Part shown: positions 1,815 to 27,046 of the stretch, in pieces
How the letters are laid out: each line of letters begins with the position of its first letter
How positions within the stretch are numbered: position 1 is the stretch's first letter
DNA from: a virus
Lineage: Duplodnaviria; Caudoviricetes
IMG/VR virus record: IMGVR_UViG_3300025018_000448
Span: 1 to 28,737 of that record
Reading direction: 5' to 3' (one strand)
Length of the DNA: 28,737 nt
Program-made: the position numbers and the translations under genes
The notes under the pieces: generated by a model
The model's database searches: none
The model's input: only the letters and a program-made list of their open reading frames with translations
Told to the model about the DNA's origin: nothing

Positions 1815-2576
1815 ATGACAAGAGCAGTAATAAAAAGAAGAGTGATAGGAGAAGAAGATTCCTTTAATACAGTCTCAGATGCTGATAGATACGATATCCT
1901 CAGACGCTACAGGCTAGGGGAGACCTTAGTATCTATAGCTAACTTAAAGAACCTTAGTCTAGCTACTATAAAGATCTTTGTCTCTACAGAGATTAGTGGT
2001 CTCTCAACAATACAGGAGATCAACAAACTAACTAATGAGGCTAAAGGTCTTATAACTACTGTAAGAAACCCTACAGCACTAATGAATGATAAGTTCCTAG
2101 AGAACGTAGACGATGGCAAGGAAGTGTATGCCTTCTACTACGCTATGACTGGGAGCAATGAACATGCGCTAGAACAAGCTGGCTTAGATAAGTGGATACC
2201 TACAGGGGTAGGGGCTAAGACTAAGAGATACACTCTCTCAGTTCGTGGTAAGTTCATCAGGGATCTCCCAGGTATCCAAGAGTATATCAATGAGATCAGA
2301 GATAAGAGACTGAGGGATATGGACTTAGGTAAGCCCTATATCCAATCTGAACTAGTAGAGCAGATAGAACAACTGAAGGAGATATCAGGAGATGATCCCA
2401 AGTACAGAAGCAACTTACTAAAAGCTATAGAGCTCCTAGGTCGTACCATGGAAGCCTTCTCTGATACTATAAGAATAGAAGATGCTGATCCTCGCACAGG
2501 TCTTGAGATACTCATGGCTAAAGCTAAGGCTGAAGTATCAGGGGGAGTAACTACGTATGAGCCATCCGAAGAGTAA
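1815..2576 (+). CDS. putative terminase small subunit / DNA-binding protein
   Basis: Overlaps the start of the large terminase; N-terminal HTH-like segment (RYDILRRYRLGETLVSIANLKNLSLATIKIFV); C-terminal 'LKAIELLGR' resembles TerS oligomerisation motifs. Function mostly from synteny. Confidence 0.6.
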   Translation: MTRAVIKRRVIGEEDSFNTVSDADRYDILRRYRLGETLVSIANLKNLSLATIKIFVSTEISGLSTIQEINKLTNEAKGLITTVRNPTALMNDKFLENVDDGKEVYAFYYAMTGSNEHALEQAGLDKWIPTGVGAKTKRYTLSVRGKFIRDLPGIQEYINEIRDKRLRDMDLGKPYIQSELVEQIEQLKEISGDDPKYRSNLLKAIELLGRTMEAFSDTIRIEDADPRTGLEILMAKAKAEVSGGVTTYEPSEE

Positions 2577-3960
2577 TCAGAAGTTACTAGAAGAAGCTCA
2601 GGCATACTACAATGGAAAGCCCATAGAGTTCTTTGAACAAGTACTGAAAGTAAAATTAGATGAGCAACAGAGGAGACTCCTCCTCCGAATAAAGCCTGGA
2701 TGTAGGATAATGGTTAAATCTGGGAAGGGTACTGGGAAATCTTTCCTCCTAGCAGGGCTAACCTTCTACTTTGAGTTCTGCTTCCCAGACTGCTTTATCC
2801 GTACCATCAGCCCATCCTATGATCAGCTACTGGCAGTATACATGAGGGAAGCACACCATCACCACCTCAGGATGATCCCAGAGATTCGAGAGCAGTTCAC
2901 GGTACAGCACGATAAGGTGTACTTAACTAAGCTCCCAACTAATACTATGGAGTGTGTCAGTAGCAAGACATCTAAGCAGGAACGTCTGGGTGGTATGCAC
3001 GCCTTTACTCAGGTGCTCCTCTTTGATGAAGCTTCTGGTGTATCAGATGAAGCCTACTACATGTCTCTGTCATCTATGGGTACAGCATTTGGAGGTGGGT
3101 ATGTTATAGGGGTATCTAACCCTGAGAGAGGGGAGGAGAGCTTCTATTACAACTTATTCGCTAGGGAGGTAGCTGGATGGGACTTACTAACCTTCACTGC
3201 ACAAGATAGTGACCAAGTTAAACCTGAGTTCATACAGCAGATGAAAGATCTCTACGGTGAAGATGGGGATGAATATCGTGTAGCTATCCTAGGGGAGTTT
3301 CCCAGGAGTGATGGTAGTGCCTACATACCCATGTCCCTAGTAGAGAAGGCCATAGCTAATACAGCTGATAGGGCATCTTATATACATGAACCTATAATCA
3401 TAGGAGCTGATATAGCCCGTAGTAAGTCTGGGGATAGTACAGTATTTGCTGTAAGACAAGGGCATAAGGTACTGGATATTATAGCTTTCCAGACAGACGA
3501 CACAATGGTAACAGTAGCAAAGCTTAAGGATATAGCAGCTAAGTATAATGCATCCAAGATATGTATGGATGCTGATGGTGTAGGTGGACCAGTAGCTGAC
3601 AGATGCAGAGAACTAGGCCTCCCAGTCACTGACGTAAGAGGCTCCTTTACATCCTCTGACCCTAGGCAATACGCTAATATAAGGACACAGCTCTGGGGCG
3701 AGATGAGGGAGTGGTTAGACTACGGGGATATCCCAGACCACTATGAGCTAAAGAAAGAATTAGGAACAATGAAGTGGGGATACTCAGGCAAGATGGCTGA
3801 GCAACTAGTGTCTAAGAAGAAGCTTATTGATGCTAGGGGTAGACGAATTAAGAGCCCAGACTACGCTGATGCACTAGCGTACACCTTCTTCTTCTCCACC
3901 ATAAGTTCCTTCAAGAATAAGACTAGGGCTAAACCTATCAAGAAGAGAAAGAGCATATAA
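2557..3960 (+). CDS. terL: terminase large subunit
   Basis: Walker A (VKSGKGTGKS), Walker B (LLFDEASG), coupling motif (VSNP), RNase H-like nuclease acidic motifs (IGADIA, DADGVGG, SPDYADAL). Confidence 0.95.
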   Translation: MSHPKSNQKLLEEAQAYYNGKPIEFFEQVLKVKLDEQQRRLLLRIKPGCRIMVKSGKGTGKSFLLAGLTFYFEFCFPDCFIRTISPSYDQLLAVYMREAHHHHLRMIPEIREQFTVQHDKVYLTKLPTNTMECVSSKTSKQERLGGMHAFTQVLLFDEASGVSDEAYYMSLSSMGTAFGGGYVIGVSNPERGEESFYYNLFAREVAGWDLLTFTAQDSDQVKPEFIQQMKDLYGEDGDEYRVAILGEFPRSDGSAYIPMSLVEKAIANTADRASYIHEPIIIGADIARSKSGDSTVFAVRQGHKVLDIIAFQTDDTMVTVAKLKDIAAKYNASKICMDADGVGGPVADRCRELGLPVTDVRGSFTSSDPRQYANIRTQLWGEMREWLDYGDIPDHYELKKELGTMKWGYSGKMAEQLVSKKKLIDARGRRIKSPDYADALAYTFFFSTISSFKNKTRAKPIKKRKSI

Positions 3961-3970
3961 GGAATAACCA

Positions 3971-6187
3971 ATGATAGAAGTTAAAGGTACACAGGAACTA
4001 AAGGAAGAGCTGGTAGAGTCCGCTGACTCTGCTATCTTTAAAGTTGATGAGTCTTACTCCTCGCTTCTATCTCATATACTGCAGAGCTTCCAGACTAATA
4101 AGGATGCTAAGGAAAGCTCTGGTGTTAATAGAATGCTTATAGAGTCCTTACAGCAGTTCAATGGGGAGTACACCCAGGAAGACCTAAGTATAATCAGTAG
4201 TGAGGGTGGTTCCTCTATATTCCTTAATCTTACAAGTACTAAGGTAAGAGCAGCTATTGCATGGATAAAAGACCTCTTACTCTCTGGCAACATAGACGCA
4301 TTCTCCATAGAGCCCACACCGATCCCGGATCTCCCAGAGGACGTACAGCAAGCCATAGCCGTAAAGCTCTCAGAAGAATTCGATCAGGCTGCAGAGGTAG
4401 GGCAAGGTGAAGTATCTATGACCTTGAAGCTTATGCAAGAGAGGAAGAGAGACCTCATGGATGCTATCTTGGAGGAACAGCAGAAGGAAGCTGAGTACGC
4501 CTTTAAGATATACGATAAGAGAATTAAGGACCAAATGAAGGAAGGTTCCTTTGATAAGGCCTTAAGTTTAGTCATTGATGACTTCTGTGTATTCCCTACG
4601 GCTATAATGAAGGGGCCTATACTTACTAAGGTTCCTCAGCTAAGATGGGAGGGAGGTCTTCCAGTAAGCGGTGATAAGCTTATCTTTAAGAATAAGAGAG
4701 TATCTCCTTTTGATGTATATCCAGCACCAGAGGCTTCTGATCCTGGTACAGGTGACTTTATAGAGCATATGCGCTTAAGTAGGAAGGAAGTCTCGGATCT
4801 GCTTGGGGTAGGAGAGCCCTACAAAGAGGATGCCATACGTAGAGTACTAGAGAATGATATCTCTAAGGGCTCCTCTGATATGGACTCTAATATAGAGCAA
4901 GACAAGGCTAGTGCTGAACTTAAGGATAATACATTTGAATCTAATAAGAATGTCTTCCATGCACTCCACTTCTTCGGTACAGCTCAAGTTAAGATACTGC
5001 GGGAGTGGGGTCTTACAGATGATATAGAAGACCTTGACCCACTTGTAGAAGTAGAGATAGAGGCTATAGTAATTGGTAACGAGATAATTAAGTGTGTACT
5101 AAATGATGATCCTCTACACAGAAGACCATACTTCATAGCATCTTTCCAGAGACGACCAGACTCCTTCTGGGGCTCCTCTATCCCTTGGCAGATGCGAGAT
5201 ATACAGAAGATATGTAATGCCACTGCAAGGGCCCTTATGAATAATATGGGTATCTCCTCAGGCCCTATGATGGAGCTTAATATAGAGCGCCTAGCTGATG
5301 GGCAAGACATAGAGGAGCTAAGAGCTAGGAGCATAGTACAAGTTACTAATGATCCTACTGGTGGTTCCTCCAGGGCTGTACAGTTCTTCTCTGCACCTTC
5401 TAATGCTGCTGAGCTACTAGCTGTATACAAGGAATTCGAGCAGAGGGCTGATGATGTAACTATGATTCCAAGATATGCTTATGGTAACGAGAGAACAGGT
5501 GGTGCAGCGCAGACAGCCTCAGGCCTTTCCATGTTACTTGAGAGTGCATCAAAGGGGATAAAGGATGCTATAAGACATCTTGATGAGGGCATAGTCATTC
5601 CACGTGTAGAGCTAGAGTTCTACTACTTGATACTCAATAATGAGGATCTCCTCTTCACTGGAGATTCTATAGCAATTGCTAGAGGATCTCAGACTCTCCT
5701 AAGGGAAGGTATGGAGCAGCAGAAGAGAGCTGAGTTCCTGCAGATAACAGCTAACCCTGTAGACCAAGAACTTATGGGCCCCATCGGAAGAGCATCCATG
5801 CTTAGAGAGATGGCAGCTCAATTAGGTTACGTGACTAACCCTGTACCTTCTAGGCAAGAACTTAAGCTTATGGTAGCTAAGAAGGCGGCAGAATCTGAGA
5901 AAGCTTCACAGCAATCTGATTCTATGGCTATAACCCAGATGCAGACAGAGGCTCAAATAAGAGTATCTGAGCAGATACAACAGGCTAAGCAACAAGAGCT
6001 AGAGCATCGGAGAGAGAAGGATACTGCCGATATCCAGCTTAGAGTTAAGAAGATGGAAGATGACAAGGAAGTAGCCCAGATGAAAGCCATGGCTAAGATT
6101 AAGGAAACAGAGATGACTAACCAAGCCAAGGCTGAAGATACTAATAAAGGTATTGCCCTACAGTTAAAGACTAATGGAGGGATATAG
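3971..6187 (+). CDS. portal protein
   Basis: 738 aa directly after TerL; podovirus portal-like segments (RVSPFDVYP; FWGSSIPWQMRDIQKICNATARALMNN; TASGLSMLL); long coiled-coil C-terminus like a P22-type barrel. Confidence 0.85.
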   Translation: MIEVKGTQELKEELVESADSAIFKVDESYSSLLSHILQSFQTNKDAKESSGVNRMLIESLQQFNGEYTQEDLSIISSEGGSSIFLNLTSTKVRAAIAWIKDLLLSGNIDAFSIEPTPIPDLPEDVQQAIAVKLSEEFDQAAEVGQGEVSMTLKLMQERKRDLMDAILEEQQKEAEYAFKIYDKRIKDQMKEGSFDKALSLVIDDFCVFPTAIMKGPILTKVPQLRWEGGLPVSGDKLIFKNKRVSPFDVYPAPEASDPGTGDFIEHMRLSRKEVSDLLGVGEPYKEDAIRRVLENDISKGSSDMDSNIEQDKASAELKDNTFESNKNVFHALHFFGTAQVKILREWGLTDDIEDLDPLVEVEIEAIVIGNEIIKCVLNDDPLHRRPYFIASFQRRPDSFWGSSIPWQMRDIQKICNATARALMNNMGISSGPMMELNIERLADGQDIEELRARSIVQVTNDPTGGSSRAVQFFSAPSNAAELLAVYKEFEQRADDVTMIPRYAYGNERTGGAAQTASGLSMLLESASKGIKDAIRHLDEGIVIPRVELEFYYLILNNEDLLFTGDSIAIARGSQTLLREGMEQQKRAEFLQITANPVDQELMGPIGRASMLREMAAQLGYVTNPVPSRQELKLMVAKKAAESEKASQQSDSMAITQMQTEAQIRVSEQIQQAKQQELEHRREKDTADIQLRVKKMEDDKEVAQMKAMAKIKETEMTNQAKAEDTNKGIALQLKTNGGI

Positions 6188-6417: not shown

Positions 6418-7383
6418 ATGAACACTGCGAGAATGTTACAAGAAGAAAAGGAACTTGAGAGTAAACTGTTTGGGACCCCCGAGTCAGCTGAGACCAAGGC
6501 TGATGAGGCTCCCGTTACCAACCCCGAAGAGCAGAGTGCACCTGTTGATACTACAGCGGTCACTGTAGATACTGATAAGCCACTTGAGCATGAGGGTACG
6601 GAAGAGAGAGCTGAGGACTGGAAGTTACGCTACACTAACCTACGTAATAGTAGGGACGTTAAGCTATACAATGCTCAGAAAGCATTAGCTAATTCTGAGA
6701 ACACAGTTAGTATGCTTCAACAGAAGATCTCCGAGCTCATGAGTAGTACCACAAGAGTAGAAGAGGACATCTTTAAGGATGCCTTCACTGAGGAAGAGAG
6801 AGAGGCCTTAGGGCCTACAGCTATTGCAGCAATGCAGAAGACAGCTAAGCTAGCAGCAGATGCAAAGACCTTTAATATCCAGAAGGAACTAAAAGAAGTT
6901 CGGGATAGGGCCCACGCAGATGTCAAAGCTAATGCAGCTAATGCAGCTCAAAGAGCTTATGAAACTTTCCTTGGACGACTAGGGTCTATAGTACCTGATT
7001 ATGCTTCTATAGATACTGACCCTCGGTTTAAGCAATTCATGAATACTCAGGATATTGACGGTGCTGCTCGTATCCAGAACTTCACTATAGCAGAATCTCA
7101 TGGTGATGTAGCTACAGTAGCTAGACACATGTTAGACTTTAAATATTCTCTTAATCCTAAGGCTCAGGCTAAGGCTTCCCTTGATTCTAAGATTGGTCCA
7201 ACAGGTGACGCTACGAAAGTAGTTGTAAACAATAAGGAAACTAATGGTGATCTTACAATGCGTGAGGTCAACGAACACTATAGAAAATTCGCTAGAGGAG
7301 GCTATAAGGGTAGACAATCAGAGTACTTAGCAATGGAGGCCCGGATTGATGCCGCCGCATCTAGCGGTAAAATAAGAGGTTAA
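6418..7383 (+). CDS. putative capsid scaffolding protein
   Basis: Acidic disordered N-terminus, coiled coil, C-terminal 'IDAAASSGKIRG'; lies between portal and capsid. Confidence 0.75.
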   Translation: MNTARMLQEEKELESKLFGTPESAETKADEAPVTNPEEQSAPVDTTAVTVDTDKPLEHEGTEERAEDWKLRYTNLRNSRDVKLYNAQKALANSENTVSMLQQKISELMSSTTRVEEDIFKDAFTEEEREALGPTAIAAMQKTAKLAADAKTFNIQKELKEVRDRAHADVKANAANAAQRAYETFLGRLGSIVPDYASIDTDPRFKQFMNTQDIDGAARIQNFTIAESHGDVATVARHMLDFKYSLNPKAQAKASLDSKIGPTGDATKVVVNNKETNGDLTMREVNEHYRKFARGGYKGRQSEYLAMEARIDAAASSGKIRG

Positions 7384-7387
7384 TAAA

Positions 7388-10300
7388 ATGGCTTTACGTC
7401 CAGAAACAGCGCTTTACCACAATGCAGTAGACAACACCTACTTGGATCCGGTTAATTATATCCCGGAGTTGTACTCTAAGAAGGTTTTAAGGAAGAATTA
7501 GAAGTTCCTTTTTAAATCCCTACTGAAGAACGGGGTAAGACCCGAAGGAAGGTAATTCACTCTCATGAGGCGAATATGTTCAATACAAATGATCTAGGCT
7601 ATAAGCTTAGATGTGGAAGTATCAAGAAGCACTCAGAGCAACTTAATAAATATGTTGCTGGCTTTATAGATTCAGATGGGTGTATATCCTTGAAGTATAA
7701 GGAGATGACTACTGGTAGGTATGGGGTGTATGTACAGTTTGCACTCTGCCAATCTGAGAGCAATGATGAGGGGCACGAGCTTCTACTAGCTTTACAAAAG
7801 CATTATAATGTAGGACAAGTATACATAGAGAGAGAGTTCTCTAAATCTGTAGCAGCTAGGTGGGTGGTGTCAGGTAAGGAAGCTGAGAAGTTTCTAAGTG
7901 TAATACACAAGCACCTGCTAGTTAAGTACACACATCTAGGTAATATCTTATGGATAACCAGGGAGTTACGGGGCTATACTATCAGAGATGCTACTGATCT
8001 TAAAGATTACATGAAGTGCTCTAGGGCTTCATCTAGGTGGAAGAGAGAACCTAAGCATATATCAAAAGCCTGGTTAGCTGGTTTCATAGATGGAGATGGG
8101 CACTATAGAGTTCGTATAGGTAGACAACGTAGATACGGGGATGGTTCAGTGGCTACAGTCAACGAGCTTAAACTCTTTCTCGGTACCCAAGAGTCTGATG
8201 TATTTATTTTAAGGCAACTCTGTAAGGACTATAGAGGATCCTTAAGTAAGCGAACTGATGGCTTATGGATGTGGCAGTTAGCCCTGGGAAAGCAGAGTAG
8301 AACTAAGGCTATAGACCTACTAACGTCCCTAAGGAAGTATACTTGTATTACTAAGAAGTACAATGCTATTCTAAGAGCTTTAGCATTCCATGAACAATAC
8401 CACCTGCAGAGACTAAGTGTTGGGGAAGTCGATAAGATTATGCGATAGTCCGATAAGCTTCTATGAGTCTGCTATATTTCAAGATATTTGTAACACTGAC
8501 TTAACCTAATAGGTCACTTGAGGAGAGATCCTCTCGATTAAACTATGTGAATTGCTGGAACCCTGAGATGGGAATCAGCAGCGAAGCTTAGGTGGCGACA
8601 CCTTTGAACGTTCAACGACTAACCCTCGATACTCTTTTCAGAGTGTGTAATAGGGACACGAGCGCATAGCCCCAGAGATGGGTGATGATATAGTCTGATC
8701 TTATGGGAATACAACCATAAGTGCTAGTGTATTAAAAGGCTAGCAATAACGTAATGATGAGGGTGAGATTAAAGGTGCTGGTGCTAAGGTACATATTCGT
8801 AAGACTCCAGAGATCACTGTTAACCCGTACACAATCGGACAGACTCTGACTTATGAGGTACCTGAGAAAGATTCCACTGAGCTTGTAATTGACCAAGCTT
8901 TCTATACTGCCTTCCAGGTTGAAGATGTAGAGAAAGCTCAGGCTGATATCGAGCTTGTTAATATGTTTGCTAAGGATGCTGGAGAGCGAGTAAAGATTGC
9001 TGTCTCCAGAGAGGTACTTGCCTATATGTCCCTGCAGCCAGCTGCAGCTAACCAAGGTAACGTAGCCGGTGCTATCAGTGGTGCTATTAAGCTTGGTGCT
9101 ATTGCCGGTGTTGGTGCCTCTGTTCTTATTGATAGTACTAATGCAGTCAATAAGATCGTAGAACTTAATCAGGCTCTGGATGAACAGAACATCCCAAGTG
9201 AAGGGCGTTGGATTGCACTTCCTGCCTGGTACTGTGCCCTTCTTAAGGTTGGTGACTTGAGAAGATCCGACATTACCGGAGATAGTACTGGTGTGATTCG
9301 TAACGGACTCATTGGTCAAGTTGATCGTACTATGATCTACATGACTAATGGTCTTCATACTGCCACTGACGGTGATGCTGCTACTAGCACCTACGTCCTT
9401 TGTGGTACAAAAGAAGCTTCTAGCTTCGCTGCCCAGATCACTAAGACTGATACGCTGAAGATTCAGAATGCCTTCGGTGAGTCGGATGACTACGAGACTC
9501 TTCTCGCAGCCTAGTGCTCACTTTAAACTACTTTAAATAACGGGGTAAAACCCGAGGCAATGTATATAATTCCTCTTAGGAGCGTAATTAATGATATTCG
9601 ATACTAACACCTTAGGGTACAAGTTAGTTACAGGACAACTAAAGAAACACTCAGAACAACTTAATAAGTATGTAGCCGGTCTTCTGGATACAGATGGCTG
9701 GATAGGTTTTGAGTTCACACAAGGTAAAGCTTACGTTCGTATGGGTCTCCGACAAGCTGCAACAGTTGATGGAGACTTTCAGATGCTAAGAGCTGTACAG
9801 AAGCACTACCAACTAGGTACGATTTCCTACGGTTTCCAAGCAAATGATGTATCCTTCTGTTCCTGGAGACTTAGCACTAAACATGCTAACATGCTCTTCG
9901 GTTTAGTAGGGAAACATATGCGGATTAAACAGTCACACTTTAAGAACATACTAGAGTTTGATACTACGCAGGGAGACTTAAAAGAGTTCTCCAGGCTAAG
10001 TAGAGAAAACACTGGTTGGCTGAAGAGACCTAAGCACTTATCTTACGCGTATGTAGCTGGACTTCTTGATGGTGATGGCTGCTACAGAATCCGTAAGAAG
10101 GAAGGTAAGATTACTACAATGTGTGTTAAGGCAGCTATCAACGAAGAGTTCATACTCTTAAAGCTGCAAGAAGACTTTGGTGGTTCCATCAACGATCATT
10201 CAGAAGGTATGAAGTGCTGGCGTAGAGGCTTAGGTAAAGGGCATAAAGCCTTCTCTATTCCATTCCTTAAGAGCATGAGGAAGTATTCATGCATAGAAGG

Positions 10301-10504
10301 GAAGTACCTAAAGATCAATGAGATGTTAAGATATCTACAAGCCGCAGAGACTAAACAAGTAGAGATCACCCCAGTGGTGATCTAAGTGATAGTCCAACCG
10401 TACTAGCTACGGTTGACTGGCGTTCGCTCTTTGTCTATGGGCGTGCTGTCCCACAGCCTACTGCACTTGCTGCTCTTATCTGCAAGCCTGGTACTGCTGT
10501 GTAA
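7388..10504 (+). CDS. major capsid protein, spliced: join(7388..7494,8458..8501,8757..9482,10416..10504), 321 aa
   Basis: Exons of 107+44+726+89 = 966 nt join in frame: MALRPETALYHNAVDNTYLDPVNYIPELYSKKVLRN|FYESAIFQDICNTDY|EGEIKGAGAKVHIRKTPEIT...KIQNAFGEY|WRSLFVYGRAVPQPTALAALICKPGTAV*. The IPE.YS..FY..NTDYEGEI..G..V.I and FG...R.L.VYG patterns are those I recall from P22-coat-like (HK97-fold) capsids. ORF-track 8963..9514 is part of exon 3. Confidence 0.92.
7495..8457 (+). mobile_element. group I intron 1 (963 nt) in the capsid gene; reduced core, carries a LAGLIDADG gene
   Basis: IGS TAGAAGTTCCTT (7499-7510) is the exact reverse complement of the ligated junction AAGGAA|CTTCTA. P3 7517-7522/8421-8426; P4 CGGG 7531-7534/CCCG 7541-7544; P6 AGG/CCT; J6/7-P7 GCAGAGACTA; P7' TAGTC 8446-8450; terminal G 8457. 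Confidence 0.88.
7576..8448 (+). CDS. intron-encoded two-motif LAGLIDADG homing endonuclease / possible maturase
   Basis: Motifs YVAGFIDSDG and WLAGFIDGDG; lies in L6 of intron 1 with its 3' end overlapping P6'-P7-P3'-P8-P7'. Confidence 0.92.
   Translation: MFNTNDLGYKLRCGSIKKHSEQLNKYVAGFIDSDGCISLKYKEMTTGRYGVYVQFALCQSESNDEGHELLLALQKHYNVGQVYIEREFSKSVAARWVVSGKEAEKFLSVIHKHLLVKYTHLGNILWITRELRGYTIRDATDLKDYMKCSRASSRWKREPKHISKAWLAGFIDGDGHYRVRIGRQRRYGDGSVATVNELKLFLGTQESDVFILRQLCKDYRGSLSKRTDGLWMWQLALGKQSRTKAIDLLTSLRKYTCITKKYNAILRALAFHEQYHLQRLSVGEVDKIMR
8502..8756 (+). ncRNA. group I intron 2 (255 nt), canonical, ORF-less, subgroup IA-like
   Basis: 5' exon ends in U (TGACT) pairing with GGTCA; P2 with GAGA tetraloop; P3 CTATGTG/CGCATAG; P AATTGCTGGAA, Q AATCAGCAG, R GTTCAACGACTA, S GATATAGTCTG; extra helices between P7 and P3'; two P9 hairpins; ends in G 8756; removal restores D-Y-E-G-E-I-K. 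Confidence 0.95.
9483..10415 (+). mobile_element. group I intron 3 (933 nt) in the capsid gene; reduced core, carries a LAGLIDADG gene
   Basis: Exon GTGAGT pairs with GCTCAC (9516-9521; U.G at the splice site); P10 CTAGT/ACTGG; P3 CTACTT/AAGTAG; P4 CGGG/CCCG; P6 GGC/GCC; GCAGAGACTA...TAGTC; P8 AGATCACC/GGTGATCT; P9 AACCGTA/TACGGTT; terminal G 10415. Confidence 0.92.
9591..10385 (+). CDS. intron-encoded two-motif LAGLIDADG homing endonuclease / possible maturase
   Basis: Motifs YVAGLLDTDG and YVAGLLDGDG; clearly paralogous to 7576..8448 (shared LGYKL..G..KKHSEQLNKYVAG and PKH.S.A..AG..DGDG). Confidence 0.92.
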   Translation: MIFDTNTLGYKLVTGQLKKHSEQLNKYVAGLLDTDGWIGFEFTQGKAYVRMGLRQAATVDGDFQMLRAVQKHYQLGTISYGFQANDVSFCSWRLSTKHANMLFGLVGKHMRIKQSHFKNILEFDTTQGDLKEFSRLSRENTGWLKRPKHLSYAYVAGLLDGDGCYRIRKKEGKITTMCVKAAINEEFILLKLQEDFGGSINDHSEGMKCWRRGLGKGHKAFSIPFLKSMRKYSCIEGKYLKINEMLRYLQAAETKQVEITPVVI

Positions 10505-10511
10505 ATAAATT

Positions 10512-10542
10512 CTGGGGGTACTCCTCTGTGGGGTACCCCCAG
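10512..10542. terminator. strong GC-rich hairpin after the capsid stop (terminator or processing/stability stem)
   Basis: CTGGGGGTACTCC-TCTGT-GGGGTACCCCCAG, 13-bp stem; no U-tract on the + strand, A-rich upstream. Confidence 0.55.
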
Positions 10543-10643: not shown

Positions 10644-10729
10644 GGATGTCGTGAGCATTGGTAAGCTTCAGCGGGCTGTAACCCCGTAGCCTTCGGGCTG
10701 TCTAGGTTCGAATCCTAGGGCATCCACCA
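10644..10729 (+). tRNA. tRNA-Tyr(GTA)
   Basis: Acceptor GGATGTC/GGCATCC, anticodon arm GCGGG-CTGTAAC-CCCGT, long variable arm AGCC-TTCG-GGCT, T arm CTAGG-TTCGAAT-CCTAG, A73, encoded CCA. Confidence 0.88.
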
Positions 10730-10732
10730 TAA

Positions 10733-10807
10733 GGCACATAAGGATATGTGGAGATCTTCTAGCCTTGTAAGCTAGCTAACAGTGTTCGACTCACTGATGT
10801 GCCTCCA
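10733..10807 (+). tRNA. tRNA with TGT (Thr) anticodon and atypical, Cys-like acceptor stem
   Basis: Acceptor GGCACAT/ATGTGCC, D stem GGAT/ATCT, anticodon arm CTAGC-CTTGTAA-GCTAG, T arm CAGTG-TTCGACT-CACTG, U73, encoded CCA. Confidence 0.82.
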
Positions 10808-20806: not shown

Positions 20807-23800
20807 ATGGGATACTTAGAGGATAATGGCTTTGTAGAGGAACCAGAAACTCTTGATGATATGCGGTACCAAAATACCTTGATGAGTAAGGGGGATAGAG
20901 ATACTACATTAGATTACCTAAGCGCTGCATTCAGGGGCTTTGGTACTGCAATTAATATGTCTGGAGCATCACTACAACAGATGGGGGCTGAGGATGCTGG
21001 ACAGGTTGTAAGAGATGCAGGTAGTTCTATGCTTGAGTCTGAGTTCGCTAAACCAGATCCTGCTGAGTTCTTTGGAAAAGAGGGCTTGCTAAAGAGAGGC
21101 ACTATGGTAGCAGTAGAATCTACAGCAGCATCTACTGCACCCCTCCTTTCTGGTATAGCTGGATCAGCCGTAGGTAGTCCTCTAGTTGGTGCCGGTGCTG
21201 CCGGTGTTACCGGATTTCTTCAGTATGGCTTAGGAGGTAAGAAGATAGCCTTTGAGAATATTACTAAAGAGAAGCCTGATATGCCACTGGAAGAGAGGGA
21301 GGAGTACTCCTGGAGAGTGGGGATGAATGAGGCTATACCTGAGATGCTGGGAGACATGATATCCATAGCATCTGGTGGTATTCTTGCGGAAGGAAAACCT
21401 GTGTTATCAGCTGGCTTCAAGGCTCTCTTTAATTCAGGAGAGCTTACAGCTAAGGAAGCCGTAGCTACAGCCTTCAAAGGGGCATCTCCCGCTGCTATAG
21501 CTAAGGTTACTGGGTTTAACGCTGGCATTTCGACGGGGACAGAGACTGTCACAGAGTTACTTAATAGGGCTAATAGAGAGTCCTATGAGTTACCAGCACA
21601 GAACATGGACTTCCCTACTCTCTTAGTTGCTGCAGCCTTCCCAGGCCCAGTAGGTACAGCAGCAGGTTATGTTGGTGGTAGGCTTAAGATAGCTTCTATT
21701 AAGAAGGGTGTAGAGGATGCTTTATCATCCGGGGATATAGAGACAAGGTTAGCTACCTCTGAGCTCTTGAGTAATAGAATATCCGAGATTGATCCTGAGT
21801 TTGGACAGAAGTTTAAGGAGACTATAGTACCTCTTGCTATTGAGGGGCCAGTGTCCCTAGAGACAGTAATTAATAAGAGGACTACCATAGATGAAGTTAT
21901 AGATACTCCAGAGAAAGTGATGGAGTCTAGTGGTATCCCCTTAGGCGGATCTGAGTTAAGAACTACTAATAGAGCAGAAGAATTCAAGAAGGAAGAAGAA
22001 GCTCGTATAGCCACTGAGGAAGCACAGAAGTTAACAGTGGAGAGTAGGCTAGCACCATTTAAGGCTAAGCAAGAGACCTCCATAAGTATCACTGATGGGA
22101 TAGCAAAGGAAGAAGCACAGAGAAGGATGGCTAGTATCTCTGCTAAGGTAGAGGACTACATGAAGACTGTAGAGCCTGACACAAGCCTACTGACTAGGCT
22201 AGATGCAGCTACAGGGAAGGTTGTACCAGCCACTATAGCTGAGGCTTCTGTCCCCCTCTATGATGCCTTAATTCTAGATAACGCTAGATCACAGGCTATC
22301 AAGGAGGGTATGCAGAGAGTCCTCGTAGACTCCAATAAGTTAGCTGAGATCACTGATCTGGACGAGAGGGAAGTACTGCAGAATAGAATCCAGAAGACAC
22401 AGAAGCAGATAGTGAAGGAGGTTACTGCACATACCAAAGAGAAGGGGAAGGCTGTAGTAGCCCCTGTAGAGCAGAAGATTTCTAAAGTAGCTCCTCCTAT
22501 AGCTGAGTTACCTAAACTGAGAGATGAAGATATTGCTAGAGCCCAAATGGAGGCTGGTGTAACTAAGACCTCTACAGTAGCCCCCACAGCGAAAGTAGAA
22601 GCTGAGGATACTACCACACCCCTAGAAGCTGAAAAGAACGTAGAGGTGGCAAAGAGTGCTCCTAGAGTAGTTCCTGAAGGAAAGACCTATAAGGAGCAAC
22701 TACTGGTTACACAAAAGCTGGAAGAGGATCTTGCTAGGGCACAGACTGCTGCTAAGTCTGGGAAGCCAGAGGAAGCTACTGCTGCTAAGGAGTTATCCTC
22801 TATACTAGCTGAGGATGTGCAAGTGTCACGTAAGAGACTACAGTCTATGCCTAAGCCGGGAATAGAGCCTATAGTCTTTAAGAATAAGAAGGAAGCCCAA
22901 GAAGCTGCTAGACTAGGTGCACCTGAGAAGATGGGTGAGTCTGAGGTTGCTATAGCCCTTGGGTTACAAGATAGGGGTGTAGATGTAACCCCAGCCATAC
23001 GACTGATACTGGGGAAACAGAAGAAGCTTGGGAAGCAAGATCTAGAAGATCCAGTTAAAGTTAAGGAAGCTGTAGATACTATAGCTAAGGTACTAGAGAC
23101 ACCTCAACAGATCAAGGCTACTGGAGTAGGTGAGGGTAGGAGTATAGAGTTCCATGATGGTACTAAGCTTATCTATATGGGTGCTTCTCTTGAGGCACCT
23201 AAGAGATGGATGGTTAAGCAAGGTCCTCTAACTAAGAGAGTCTCCTCTGAACCCTTGGGAAGGAAGGCTATAGCTGAAGGTACTGTTAAGGATCTTAAGG
23301 ACTATGCTGATGAGGGGCGGAAGGATGTCCTAGCTAAGGATATGCCTAAGCTTACGCAAGAGCAGAAAGACTTAGTAACTAAGTTCATTAAGAATGAGAA
23401 GTATGAGGCGTATGGTCCCTCAGGTGACGTAGCTCTTGCAGCATCCTTACTAGCAGCTGATGGTAAGCTCTATGAGAATGGTAAGCTTAATGTCAAGGGA
23501 CTTAAGAGTAAGACTAAGAGCATCACAGATACTATTACTAGGAAGAGTTCAGAGTCTATGTCAGCTGGACAGGCTGGGGTAACTTCTGGAGTAACTGAGA
23601 AGCTGGAGCTTAGTACTGAGGAGGACATAGTTCTTCCAGCAGAGAAGCCTGTGAGGACTAAGGCAGAGGTAGCAGCTGAGAGGAAGGCTAAGAGGGAGGC
23701 TCTAGAGTCAACTGTAGTTAAAGTTGAGGCTACTGAGGATCTTAAGGCACAGATTCTTGCTAGGCATAAGGAAGCCATGGCCAAGAAGAAAGCATCTGGT

Positions 23801-26800
23801 GCTACCCTGGAGAGTGAGCTAGGTGTTGCTGGGGCTAAGAGAGTCAGAGATAAGCAAGAGACTACCCTAAGGGAAGACGATAATGCCCTGTATGACGTTT
23901 CTGATAGACTTAGATGGAAGAAGAACAGAGAGCCACAGCTTACTGATGAGTTCATAAATACTGTAATAGATGGCTACTTAGCACCAGTGAACTATAACCC
24001 TCTTGAGGCTATCTTAAGATTCTCTAAGGAGTATCCTAATCCTAGGACACAAGATCTTATAGATACACAAATGTTTCTAGTGTCTTCTCTTATGGCTGAG
24101 AAGACTGTAATGAAGAACTACTTTACAAATAACTATAGGAATGCCTTAGAGCTCCTAGATGGCGTTATAGCTAATGGAGGGAAGGAAGCTAAAGCTTTAG
24201 CTGAGTTCATTAGGGAAAGTCCTAAGATCAAGGAGTTAGAGAATATACCAGTATCTGTAAGCGATGGTGTCTCCTTCTTTACTGCTAGGGATGATGGGTC
24301 TATCTCTATAAGGTCTAATGGTATGATGGATGTTAATGTATGGCTACATGAAGTTCAACATGCAGCTACATCCAGGGAGATCCTTAGCAATGAGAAGATG
24401 AGAGAAGAAGTGAAGGTGATGATGAGGAACCTGGAGAATAACTCAGGACTCTCCAAGGACCAACTTAAGGCAGTTGAAGCAGCCAAGGGTTCTTCTTCTA
24501 AGTTCAATGAGATTGCCAAGGACTACTCAGTGTTTACTGATGCCCAGATGAACATAGCATACTCCCTTGTTAATGAGAGAGAATTCCTTGCACAGATATA
24601 TAGCTCTTCTGCTGTAAGGGATCTTGCTAGGAGAACTAGGCATACTGCAGGTAGCTTTAGGGATTCGGTATGGAAGCGTATCAAGCAGTTCTTCTCTGAT
24701 GTCATGAAGTTACCTAAGGAGTATGATAGTGTACTTGAGGCTGCCTTGAGGGTGTCTGAGAGACTCTATAGGGTAAACTATAAGACTGGGTTATCGTTTA
24801 CTGATATGTCTCTAGAGACAGAATCTAGGAGGAATGAGACTCCTGATGAAGCTGTAAGAAAGATACTGGCTGAGAGAAAGCAGGAGAGTGTCCTCAAGGG
24901 CAAGTTAGAGGAGAAGATGTCTCAAGCACTGGAGTCTTTCAAGAAGCTTGCAGTGCCTATCTCAGATAGCTTAAAGAGGATCTCTGAGCCTATATATGCT
25001 AAGCTAATAGAGATGGAAGCTATCCAGAACTTTAAGGGGGCTAAGTATAGTAAGGGTATCTCTCCGTTCCTCAGCTACTATAAGGGACTAACAGTATCAC
25101 AGAAGGTACGTCTAGACTATGGACTTATGAATAATCATGAGGATGTCTGGAATGAGATGCCTAGGAATGTAAGGGCAGAGCTGGAGAATGTACTTGGGGA
25201 TATAGGAGATAGGGGAATAGCTGTTGGATACCTTACTAAGAAGAAGCCTAGGTACTACCCTAGGAGAGTAAAAGATATAGAGGGTCTTATAGAGCACCTT
25301 ACAAAAGGTATGGATGAGAAGGGGCCTATAGCTGTAGCCCTTAAGGCTAAGGCTGATAGTGTCGGTATGCAGGTCTCTGAGTTACCAAGGGCTATGAGGA
25401 ATCAGGTAATTACTGATATGTTATCCTCTGGGGAGATCATGCAGTTACCTAAGCCTGGGTCTGTTAAGAAGAGAAGCATAGGTAAAGTTACCTCTGATCT
25501 AGTACCTTTCTATATGAACTCTTCTGATGCTCTTATAGCACACGTCTATGAGTCTAATGATAAGTTATCTATGAAGGAGTTTGTAGGGGCGTCTGGGAGG
25601 AAGAAGAAAATTAAAGATCTTATGAGCCTTAATACTAAGATAGATAAGGAGACTGATGAGACTAAGAGAGCTCTTCTCTTGCAGAAGTGGGAAGAAGATG
25701 CTAAGGCTTTATCTGATCTGGAGGAGGATCTTGAGGGTGGTATCCAGGAGCTAATAGATAAGGAGCTTAGCACAGAACCTAAGGCTAAACAAGTAGAAGT
25801 ATTCTCTATGCTATCTGCCAGGATGAGACAGAAGGGAGCCTCTGGGATCTATGATACATTTAGAAACATAGGCTATATAGCAACTATGGGTAATATGCTT
25901 AGTGCTATTACTCAGTTAGGTGATATTCCTATCATATTCTATAGCTACGGTATCAATAGGGAGACTGTAGCAGCTGCAGGTAAGGCCTTTAAGAATGTAG
26001 CTACAATAGCCAGGGGAGAGCTTACAGGGAAGAGTATACAATCAGATGCCTTTGTATTTGATATGGACTTCCAGAACTCCCTCAGAGAATTTACATCTGG
26101 CAATAAGCTTAGTGCTAAGGCTCTAGAGACAGTCTTTAAGTACTCAGGACTCAAGTATATGGATCTTGTAGGTAAGGAAGCTAGGATGCAAGCAGCATAT
26201 AGCTACTACCAGAAGCCTAAGAACAGGGAGGAATTTATAGAGAAGTATAAGTACTTCTTTGAGAATCCTGAGGAGATACTACAGAAGATTCAGCTTGGCA
26301 ATAAGAGGGATAAGGATGTTCTTACTGTACTCTTTACTGAGCTATCTGACTTCCAGCCTATAAGTTTATCTCAGCAATCTGAGGTGTACCTTGGTAGTGC
26401 CAATGCTAGGATGTTCTTTGCTCTTAAAACCTTCACCTTGAGAACTACCAGTGCTGCCATAAGGGAGGGCCTGGTAGAGATTAAGAAGGGAGGCCCCAAG
26501 GATATAGCTAGGGGTGCCATGAAGATCACTGCTATACTTGCCCTGTATGCAGCTGCTGGTGCTGGGACTGATGAGCTAAAGGATCTTATAACTGGTAAGG
26601 AGAGCGGCTTCAAGGATAATACTATAGATAACTTAATGCAGCTATTCTTTATCTCTAAGTATACTGTAGAACAGGGGATGCAGAGAGATCAGTTACTACA
26701 AGGTCTCTTGGAAGATCTTATTCCTCCTGTTCGTTATGCTGACCAGTTAATAGGGGATATCAATGGGCTTGTGTCTTCTGAGAAAGACTTTGAGTTCAAG

Positions 26801-27046
26801 TCATTAAGCTGGATGTTGCCTGTCATAGGCTCTACCTTGCAGAGACGTAGTGATCCACAGCAAGCTAAGTATGCCGAACAGTATCGTACTGATATACTGG
26901 AGGATGTAAAGAAGAATGCTAAGAAGAGAAGAGGAGCATACTATGGAGGAATAACAGAGAGGGTAAGGGAGTACAATAAGAAGGTAGTAGATAAAGAGAA
27001 GAGAATAGATAGCTCAGTTATTATGAACGCTTATAAAAGAGAATAA
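20807..27046 (+). CDS. very large internal virion / DNA-ejection protein with zincin-like metallopeptidase motif
   Basis: 2079 aa; N-terminal Gly/Ala hydrophobic segments; VWLHEVQHAAT (HExxH) with downstream NEREFLAQ; position typical of the largest podovirus ejection protein. Confidence 0.75.
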   Translation: MGYLEDNGFVEEPETLDDMRYQNTLMSKGDRDTTLDYLSAAFRGFGTAINMSGASLQQMGAEDAGQVVRDAGSSMLESEFAKPDPAEFFGKEGLLKRGTMVAVESTAASTAPLLSGIAGSAVGSPLVGAGAAGVTGFLQYGLGGKKIAFENITKEKPDMPLEEREEYSWRVGMNEAIPEMLGDMISIASGGILAEGKPVLSAGFKALFNSGELTAKEAVATAFKGASPAAIAKVTGFNAGISTGTETVTELLNRANRESYELPAQNMDFPTLLVAAAFPGPVGTAAGYVGGRLKIASIKKGVEDALSSGDIETRLATSELLSNRISEIDPEFGQKFKETIVPLAIEGPVSLETVINKRTTIDEVIDTPEKVMESSGIPLGGSELRTTNRAEEFKKEEEARIATEEAQKLTVESRLAPFKAKQETSISITDGIAKEEAQRRMASISAKVEDYMKTVEPDTSLLTRLDAATGKVVPATIAEASVPLYDALILDNARSQAIKEGMQRVLVDSNKLAEITDLDEREVLQNRIQKTQKQIVKEVTAHTKEKGKAVVAPVEQKISKVAPPIAELPKLRDEDIARAQMEAGVTKTSTVAPTAKVEAEDTTTPLEAEKNVEVAKSAPRVVPEGKTYKEQLLVTQKLEEDLARAQTAAKSGKPEEATAAKELSSILAEDVQVSRKRLQSMPKPGIEPIVFKNKKEAQEAARLGAPEKMGESEVAIALGLQDRGVDVTPAIRLILGKQKKLGKQDLEDPVKVKEAVDTIAKVLETPQQIKATGVGEGRSIEFHDGTKLIYMGASLEAPKRWMVKQGPLTKRVSSEPLGRKAIAEGTVKDLKDYADEGRKDVLAKDMPKLTQEQKDLVTKFIKNEKYEAYGPSGDVALAASLLAADGKLYENGKLNVKGLKSKTKSITDTITRKSSESMSAGQAGVTSGVTEKLELSTEEDIVLPAEKPVRTKAEVAAERKAKREALESTVVKVEATEDLKAQILARHKEAMAKKKASGATLESELGVAGAKRVRDKQETTLREDDNALYDVSDRLRWKKNREPQLTDEFINTVIDGYLAPVNYNPLEAILRFSKEYPNPRTQDLIDTQMFLVSSLMAEKTVMKNYFTNNYRNALELLDGVIANGGKEAKALAEFIRESPKIKELENIPVSVSDGVSFFTARDDGSISIRSNGMMDVNVWLHEVQHAATSREILSNEKMREEVKVMMRNLENNSGLSKDQLKAVEAAKGSSSKFNEIAKDYSVFTDAQMNIAYSLVNEREFLAQIYSSSAVRDLARRTRHTAGSFRDSVWKRIKQFFSDVMKLPKEYDSVLEAALRVSERLYRVNYKTGLSFTDMSLETESRRNETPDEAVRKILAERKQESVLKGKLEEKMSQALESFKKLAVPISDSLKRISEPIYAKLIEMEAIQNFKGAKYSKGISPFLSYYKGLTVSQKVRLDYGLMNNHEDVWNEMPRNVRAELENVLGDIGDRGIAVGYLTKKKPRYYPRRVKDIEGLIEHLTKGMDEKGPIAVALKAKADSVGMQVSELPRAMRNQVITDMLSSGEIMQLPKPGSVKKRSIGKVTSDLVPFYMNSSDALIAHVYESNDKLSMKEFVGASGRKKKIKDLMSLNTKIDKETDETKRALLLQKWEEDAKALSDLEEDLEGGIQELIDKELSTEPKAKQVEVFSMLSARMRQKGASGIYDTFRNIGYIATMGNMLSAITQLGDIPIIFYSYGINRETVAAAGKAFKNVATIARGELTGKSIQSDAFVFDMDFQNSLREFTSGNKLSAKALETVFKYSGLKYMDLVGKEARMQAAYSYYQKPKNREEFIEKYKYFFENPEEILQKIQLGNKRDKDVLTVLFTELSDFQPISLSQQSEVYLGSANARMFFALKTFTLRTTSAAIREGLVEIKKGGPKDIARGAMKITAILALYAAAGAGTDELKDLITGKESGFKDNTIDNLMQLFFISKYTVEQGMQRDQLLQGLLEDLIPPVRYADQLIGDINGLVSSEKDFEFKSLSWMLPVIGSTLQRRSDPQQAKYAEQYRTDILEDVKKNAKKRRGAYYGGITERVREYNKKVVDKEKRIDSSVIMNAYKRE
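24807..24820. promoter_or_regulatory. TGTCTCTAGAGACA palindrome, copy 7 (intragenic)
   Basis: Exact 14-mer inside the 2079-aa gene. Confidence 0.65.

Follow-up and report, generated by a model that had tools for sequence, protein, structure and literature searches.

A phage major capsid gene interrupted by three predicted group I-type introns, two of them with a reduced ribozyme core

Introduction

Phage capsid genes with introns are already in print, as are three introns within one late gene and micro-exons (see also PMC11878797). In the major capsid gene of mycobacteriophage LittleE, a group I-like intron contains an open reading frame (ORF) related to LAGLIDADG proteins, its splicing was demonstrated by reverse transcription PCR, and a capsid intron of Tuc2009 is cited in the same work (PMC3706429). 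The capsid ORF of crAss-like phages of the Zeta and Delta groups lies in five fragments with group I introns (PMC7886860), and orf142 of Staphylococcus phage Twort carries three introns of group I, two of them separated by an exon of only 23 nucleotides (nt) (PMC10136302). Here we describe the major capsid gene (positions 7388 to 10504) of an uncultured tailed phage, IMG/VR record IMGVR_UViG_3300025018_000448, whose 28,737 nt are referred to as a whole as the window, and in which an earlier note had proposed a capsid gene split into four exons by three group I introns.

LittleE differs from this locus in having one intron, an ORF of 177 amino acids (aa) on the bottom strand and a U at the exon end, whereas the window holds three introns, double-motif ORFs of 264-290 aa on the sense strand, and cores that lack the paired element P5 in introns 1 and 3. 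The crAss-like phages belong to an unrelated group, and their introns were called from protein domains (PMC7886860); in Twort, introns 2 and 3 are of subgroup IA2 and exon skipping has been shown (PMC10136302). The earlier note had considered such introns unusual for a phage capsid gene, a view weakened by these precedents, and the interest of the locus rests on the reduced ribozyme, an RNA enzyme about half the usual group I size in introns 1 and 3, and not on the number of introns. With good confidence, we propose that the gene was invaded independently by three mobile introns which would be removed by group I chemistry, two of them derived from a homing lineage with a reduced ribozyme.

Results

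The capsid gene is composed of the following exons, which are separated by three group I-type introns at the junctions 7494^8458, 8501^8757 and 9482^10416:

7388..7494, plus strand: exon 1 of the major capsid gene, codons 1-35 plus two bases of Asn36, predicted final base A
8458..8501, plus strand: exon 2, 44 nt
8757..9482, plus strand: exon 3, 726 nt, match to PHROG major head protein (E 1e-35)
10416..10504, plus strand: exon 4, 89 nt including the stop codon

Once joined, the exons form a single open frame of 966 nt encoding 321 aa, and the introns (963, 255 and 933 nt) take up 2151 of the 3117 nt of the split gene. All numbers of the earlier note, the short exon 2 among them, hold, and the 183-aa fragment that it expected from automated annotation matches ORF 8963-9514. 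In a comparison that it had also proposed, the joined protein aligned contiguously with intron-less capsids across the junctions: there were zero gaps at these positions against the intact genes of loci L001 (53%) and L002 (49%), and the closest homolog, P0029, is an intact, intron-free protein of 321 aa with 89% identity. Exon 3 matched phrog_267 as well as 53 GenBank phage records, the majority annotated as capsid or coat protein, and a profile built from 30 intact homologs retrieved the major capsid protein of PDB entry 8e16 (E 2e-32). A search with residues 1-120 of exon 3 as the only query yielded 66 capsid homologs, 52 of which are at least 300 aa long. Both this homology to annotated and solved capsids and the location of the gene after those for the portal and the scaffold are those of a tailed-phage major capsid protein.

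Introns 1 and 3 share one architecture, with the following features:

7495..8457, plus strand: intron 1, 963 nt with a 109-nt core, lacking P2, P5 and P9, predicted A-U pair at the 5' site, terminal G
7499..7510, plus strand: intron 1 internal guide, a 6-nt P10 strand followed by a 6-nt P1 strand
7518..7548, plus strand: intron 1 5' core, with P3 (7518-7523), P4 (7531-7534/7541-7544) and P6 (7546-7548)
7576..8448, plus strand: intron 1 ORF, 290-aa double-motif LAGLIDADG homing endonuclease in the loop of P6 (L6)
8403..8457, plus strand: intron 1 3' core, with P6 (8403-8405), P7 (8409-8415/8443-8451), P3 (8419-8424) and a short P8
9483..10415, plus strand: intron 3, 933 nt with a 151-nt core, lacking P2 and P5, U-G pair at the 5' site, terminal G
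9511..9522, plus strand: intron 3 guide, followed by P3 (9528-9533/10357-10362) and P4 (9541-9544/9551-9554)
9556..9558 and 10341..10343, plus strand: intron 3 P6, with P7 (10347-10353/10387-10395) and a 7-bp P9
9591..10385, plus strand: intron 3 ORF, 264-aa double-motif LAGLIDADG protein in L6

The internal guides described in the earlier note were confirmed, with P1 and P10 comprising 6 + 6 base pairs (bp) in intron 1 and 7 + 5 bp in intron 3. In the former, all 12 bases of the guide are complementary to the ligated junction, and this sequence occurs only once in the window. Further, P4 of intron 1 is closed by a 6-nt loop at the position expected for P5, and 6 nt lead from P7 to the terminal G. 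The two encoded proteins share 37% identity, match Pfam family PF00961 (E 3.6e-17 and 2.5e-7) and each retain two LAGLIDADG helices with intact terminal acidic residues. The end of the intron 1 ORF overlaps P6, P7, P3 and P8; from 8403 to 8448 it reads through the latter three to a stop codon inside the S element, while in close relatives the stop lies in the R element; a one-base frame change near the end of this ORF is the probable cause. Group I model searches, proposed in the earlier note, recovered intron 2 (see below), while introns 1 and 3 did not match Rfam even at E values up to 1. However, a profile of six ORF-less relatives from other phages gave exactly four matches in the 28.7-kb window (E 3e-9 to 3e-7), namely both halves of introns 1 and 3.

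A profile of 17 related endonucleases fetched 21 viral and 79 metagenome loci, the close ones being in capsid genes of related phages. The catalogue of the family comprises 31 introns from 23 contigs; omitted from it were near-identical duplicates, L013, whose 3' exon is truncated, L246, which is too short, and the first intron of L035, which lacks its 5' half. In the family, P1/P10 is followed by a linker of 2-8 nt in place of P2, and then by P3, P4 (4 bp), P6 (3 bp, with the ORF in its loop), the first strand of P7, a 3-nt junction, P3, a short P8, the second strand of P7 and a tail of 4-33 nt. Without the P6 loop, the cores measure 105-151 nt (median 119). For P3, which was not a search criterion, 184 of 186 cells are paired and each column contains two to six pair types, in comparison with a mean of 99 and a maximum of 121 in 2000 partner shuffles. 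Pairing is complete in P7 (155 of 155 cells), where R and S elements with a G-binding pair are present; that in P4 (124 of 124) and P6 (92 of 93), likewise with several pair types, is partly circular since both helices served as search anchors. A terminal G was found in 30 of the 31 introns. Introns 1 and 3 are group I-like in predicted function and in descent.

The family is set apart by the absence of P5. In 28 of the 31 introns, P4 is closed by an A-rich loop of 5-6 nt, which begins with GUAA in all but one of them (27/28), while the other three have a P5 of 2-4 bp. By contrast, all 24 P4-like hairpins located beside distant endonucleases (L039-L106) hold at least 13 nt, most with a P5 of 2-6 bp, although three of them look spurious; P5 loss is therefore a derived state of the capsid clade. 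P9 is reduced as well, with a tail of at most 10 nt between P7 and the terminal G in 12 of 31 introns; it is missing from intron 1, whereas intron 3 retains one of 7 bp. P5 is listed within the core scaffold of group I introns (PMC3984707), and the receptor of the U-G wobble at the 5' splice site is located at the P4-P5 interface (PMC2219692). Neither P5 nor the internal loop of the P4-P5 junction (J4/5) that forms this receptor is present in introns 1 and 3, and intron 1 additionally lacks P9 and, at its predicted cut, the U-G pair; hence, we assign them to no named subgroup. The earlier note had mentioned neither these absences nor the predicted A at the end of exon 1.

An extra hairpin between P7 and P3 is a mark of class IA; introns 1 and 3 have 3 nt at this position. 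They share with subgroup IA3 a LAGLIDADG ORF in P6 and, as a consequence for detection, a core seen by covariance models as two pieces (PMC6125680), but not its size, since the alignments of the GISSD database span 205-374 nt for IA3 and 203-392 nt for IB4 (PMC6125680) against the 105-151 nt given above. Another small, group I-derived RNA is the GIR1 lariat-capping ribozyme, whose shortest active form has 179 nt and in which a GUAA junction replaces the wobble receptor; GIR1, however, keeps P5 and the G-U pair, catalyzes branching rather than splicing and differs in the topology of its core (PMC2219692). The GUAA common to this junction and to the P4 loops described here may be a coincidence.

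We found no published description of P5-less group I cores this small, or of an A-U splice site, in literature searches that were themselves weak. Engineered T4 td introns reportedly keep some activity without P4-P6, and a much shorter group I intron is said to have been claimed in fungal ribosomal DNA.

In known group I introns, the final base of the 5' exon is almost without exception U, group B IStrons being the proven exception (PMC4227781). In 25 of the 31 family introns, intron 3 included, this base is a U paired to G; in the other six (the window, L029, L031, L032, L110 and L149) an A paired to U is predicted, and all six lie after the second base of Asn36. L031 shows a coupled change from C-G to U-A between the opening base of the 3' exon and the guide base opposite it, which indicates that the purine of the guide belongs to P10 and does not form a wobble. 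Intron-free close alleles read AAC (Asn36) followed by Phe, as in the predicted ligated junction of intron 1, in four of the nine loci listed; codon 36 is AAT, CAG (twice), GAC or AAG in the remaining five. In a tree of all 25 ORF-bearing rows, with midpoint root only, the five site-36 endonucleases fall in a six-row clade (support 100/97) nested in a nine-row clade (100/99) together with introns of codons 35 and 37, which are canonical at the 5' site. At L110, the codon-36 intron itself has no ORF and the endonuclease of the adjacent codon-55 intron groups with the codon-36 enzymes, which suggests an ORF exchange between adjacent introns.

The closest parallel to this splice site is the group B IStron BcISt1, in which the 5' exon likewise does not end in U and the cut lies one base ahead of the position opposite the guide G (PMC4227781). 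In IStrons, nevertheless, the cut follows a G, and a U-G pair is retained one base inside the intron (PMC4227781), whereas the exons of the intron 1 group would end in A, with G-G at the next position in five of six members and A-A in the sixth. Two other arrangements of this region were discarded: ending exon 1 at 7498 produces a frameshift, and U-G is present there in just three members out of six (the window, L029 and L032), while treating the FYE codons as intron sequence conflicts with their conservation in homologs.

Intron 2 is of a different kind:

8502..8756, plus strand: intron 2, 255 nt, conventional group I intron without an ORF, P2, P5 and P9 present, 5' splice site U-G

It is a group I intron by class assignment, scoring 60.4 bits against Rfam model RF00028 (gathering score 50) over model positions 1-253. 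Hairpins are found between its P7 and P3, its fold was better than that of 200 of 200 shuffles (z -3.2), it ends in G, and its exact removal restores the capsid gene. A relative at the same site in L027 carries a LAGLIDADG-like ORF between P7 and P3, and the site is also occupied by a related ORF-less intron in L148. This site, within Tyr51, thus holds an unrelated conventional intron in the window, L027 and L148, and a compact-family intron in L023 (2274-2391) and L109.

Public sequencing runs provided a direct view of the junction. In X1, an aquifer metagenome run and possibly the source sample, 8501 is followed immediately by 8757 in a contig with a depth of 13.3, while an intron-2-bearing contig has a depth of 6.67 and flanking contigs have approximately 29. 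In X3, a run of another study, the end of exon 2 also passes straight into exon 3. Since alleles with and without intron 2 are both present as DNA, junction 8501^8757 is fixed exactly, and part of the same phage population lacks intron 2. Single X1 contigs at a depth of approximately 29 span introns 1 and 3, and no joint skipping either of them was found among the contigs listed from public runs, although contigs cannot establish absence. The contigs from X2 and X4 were scattered and of low depth, and none of them crosses a junction. Differences between the window and the X1 contigs occur at 8137, 8151 and 8824, and X1 thus represents a close variant or a different assembly.

The 31 compact introns are distributed over 17 sites of the capsid gene, from codon 35 to codon 293, and their removal restores an open frame at every junction. 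Several genes carry between two and four introns, and some of their exons are no longer than 13 nt. The six members without an ORF have total lengths of 118 (L023), 121 (L109), 138 (L110, with the A-U site), 152, 170 and 191 nt, and RF00028 matched none of the compact introns of five further loci, six of which are ORF-less. An RNA-motif search of IMG/VR for ORF-less compact introns identified eight loci from four phage groups, all of which (8/8) also hold an endonuclease-bearing compact intron, and the same is true of L148.

The intron 1 protein as a lone query matched no viral locus, whereas the alignment profile did find such loci; GenBank phages contained one distant endonuclease match. A protein-blind search for the P4 motif retrieved 16 loci with a capsid match at every one (16/16), while the exact P4 pattern gave two matches that were both judged to be unrelated coding DNA. 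In capsid-profile searches, which rank by best segment and hence favor intact genes, 3 of 80 viral loci were intron-split; a fourth core-pattern match, L288, lies inside an intact gene. The same search of genome_contigs detected an R..S core nearby in none of 80 loci, most of them 35-47% identical, and yielded no host. Finally, a broad R..S pattern returned 74 cores, with a 5' half assignable in 15: ten short-loop cores, all in capsid genes, and five with P5. As the other 59 are unclassified, the restriction of P5-less cores to capsid genes is not proven by this count.

Several further loci deserve mention. The L023 gene contains three compact introns plus a fourth, conventional one, and both L023 (2392-2404) and L109 have a 13-nt exon between two compact introns. 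The ORF-less compact intron at L023 2055-2224 (170 nt) apparently ends in A and not in G, with U-G at its 5' site. In L035 (around 920-941), using a terminal G for the first intron, whose 5' half is off the contig, would make the upstream exon end in G. Related introns with a short P5 lie within the first 10-15 codons of genes in L063, L071, L061, L074 and L087, which share an N-terminus unmatched by the capsid profile; some of these introns are ORF-less and around 170 nt long. For the database capsid proteins P0043, P0063, P0066 and P0030, the start or the end coincides exactly with an insertion site of the family (following codon 292, preceding codon 62 and near 193), and these are probably further intron-split capsid genes annotated as fragments.

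Discussion

The most likely reading of introns 1 and 3 is that of selfish homing elements whose ribozyme is reduced. In the scenario that we propose, the only capsid gene of the head module would have received three independent introns, and its late mRNA would be spliced three times, with guanosine attacking the 5' site and ligation occurring at the terminal G. Intron 2, which is polymorphic and a group I intron of conventional type, would have lost its endonuclease; it may co-travel with intron 1, 44 nt away. In the lineage of introns 1 and 3, the ribozyme would have been cut down to P1/P10, P3, P4, P6, P7 and P8, plus no more than a small P9, the 5-6-nt A-rich loop taking the place of J4/5-P5-J5/4 and perhaps docking P1 as a substitute for the lost receptor. 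Because the endonuclease motifs are intact and the distribution is patchy, we infer that both introns spread by LAGLIDADG homing into intron-free capsid alleles during mixed infections. The intron 1 sub-lineage would have arisen beside canonical introns at codons 35 and 37, its cut preceding by one base the position opposite the guide G, so that the exon ends in an A-U pair. Stop codons near the 5' end of each intron would halt ribosomes ahead of the cores.

Several observations weigh against parts of this interpretation. Splicing is deduced from DNA, and the window, although a whole assembly, is a partial genome, so that a second capsid gene is possible. The pairing counts of P4 and P6 are those of the anchor helices, and the kinship of the introns means that shuffles overstate significance. 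The ranking of junctions drew on the protein profile and on guide pairing and ignored which bases stand at the cuts; its top pick ended in G in 27 of the 31 cases. For window intron 3, L017 and L029, the G-ending register was assigned manually, and L023 has A at the end of its first intron; window intron 3 lay outside the range of the blind search and a separate ranking places its junction correctly, while for L017 and L029 the G register ranked second. As for the intron 1 cut, the lowest-energy fold of P1 in the window is the U-G register at 7498 (-8.1 vs -6.2 kcal/mol), and the register one base to the right scores 47.6 vs 49.0 on protein alone.

The last two points raise the question of whether intron 1 is cut elsewhere, which we regard as improbable. 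P1 register shifts are known from group B IStrons (PMC4227781), and cutting the 5' site after the first purine of the intron and the 3' site one base later would give Lys instead of Asn at codon 36, as in 14 of the 66 homologs. Asn is nonetheless the majority residue there (43/66), and under the Lys register the intron would have to end in C or U, in spite of the G that directly precedes this base in all six introns. The U-G at 7498, shared by half of the six, leads to a frameshift with the terminal G, while a later G would cost Phe37, which is present in 56 of the 66 homologs. Even less probable is that the gene is a dead relic or a misassembly with decayed introns, which we hardly credit: the absence of P5 and P9 could reflect decay, and the three-intron form is the minority haplotype in X1 at intron 2 (6.67 vs 13.3), but the same reduced core with compensatory changes recurs in 23 contigs, removal of the introns restores open frames, and X1, which may be the source sample, has single contigs across intron 1 and intron 3 at a depth of approximately 29. 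The suggestion of the earlier note that splicing gates or times capsid assembly fared little better, and we consider it very unlikely. The capsid protein does require three splicing events and unspliced RNA runs into stops in each intron; however, the 89% identical homolog is intact, 52 of 66 homologs are of at least 300 aa, intron 2 is missing in part of the population, and the capsid intron of LittleE is reported to be efficiently spliced (PMC3706429). An intron-free closest homolog, polymorphism, scattered insertion at 17 sites and intact endonucleases are the pattern predicted by selfish homing.

A refinement of the selfish homing explanation concerns whether the reduced ribozymes act alone. 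On the one hand, introns 1 and 3 may represent a new group I subgroup of around 105-130 nt, capable of protein-free self-splicing without P2, P5 and often P9, and in intron 1 without U-G, whose branch would select as 5' site the point where a plain Watson-Crick P1 ends, with no canonical wobble receptor; this we put forward tentatively. On the other, and with similar reserve, the ribozymes may need the LAGLIDADG protein as a maturase, in cis or in trans, and the encoded protein possibly helps the splicing of introns 1 and 3. LAGLIDADG maturases, some of them trans-acting, have been described (PMC3073962), also in Thermotoga (PMC3984707), and the constant company of ORF-less compact introns with an endonuclease-bearing one (8/8 IMG/VR loci and L148) would fit such a dependence. 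Yet co-conversion during homing of the neighboring intron gives the same co-occurrence, only about five cases are independent, and the proteins keep their catalytic acidic residues and still resemble nucleases.

The minimal size of a group I ribozyme and the need for the U-G wobble and the P4-P5 receptor have so far been probed mostly by engineered deletions. This family offers natural test molecules in an essential gene, with whole introns of 118-138 nt, a graded P5 series (6-bp, 2-bp and none) and matched U-G and A-U members. If these introns splice unaided, they would be compact tools for RNA circularization or trans-splicing; if the LAGLIDADG protein is required, they would be a phage case of a maturase replacing RNA structure. 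In either case, compact introns escape Rfam, and the capsid genes of a phage clade are consequently annotated as fragments.

Genomic Context

The window comprises the head and tail module of a podovirus-like phage, in the order terminase, portal, probable scaffold, capsid gene, two transfer RNA (tRNA) genes, adaptor and tail genes. The capsid gene is preceded by:

2557..3960, plus strand: terminase large subunit
3971..6187, plus strand: portal
6418..7383, plus strand: probable scaffold protein, by position, directly 5' of the capsid gene

Immediately 3' of the capsid gene, within the head-tail module, are genes for tRNA-Tyr(GTA) (10644-10729) and tRNA-Thr(TGT) (10733-10807), preceded by a strong hairpin at approximately 10514-10541. 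Further downstream, positions 20807-27046 encode an ORF of 2079 aa with no PHROG match, which by its position would be a large internal virion protein.

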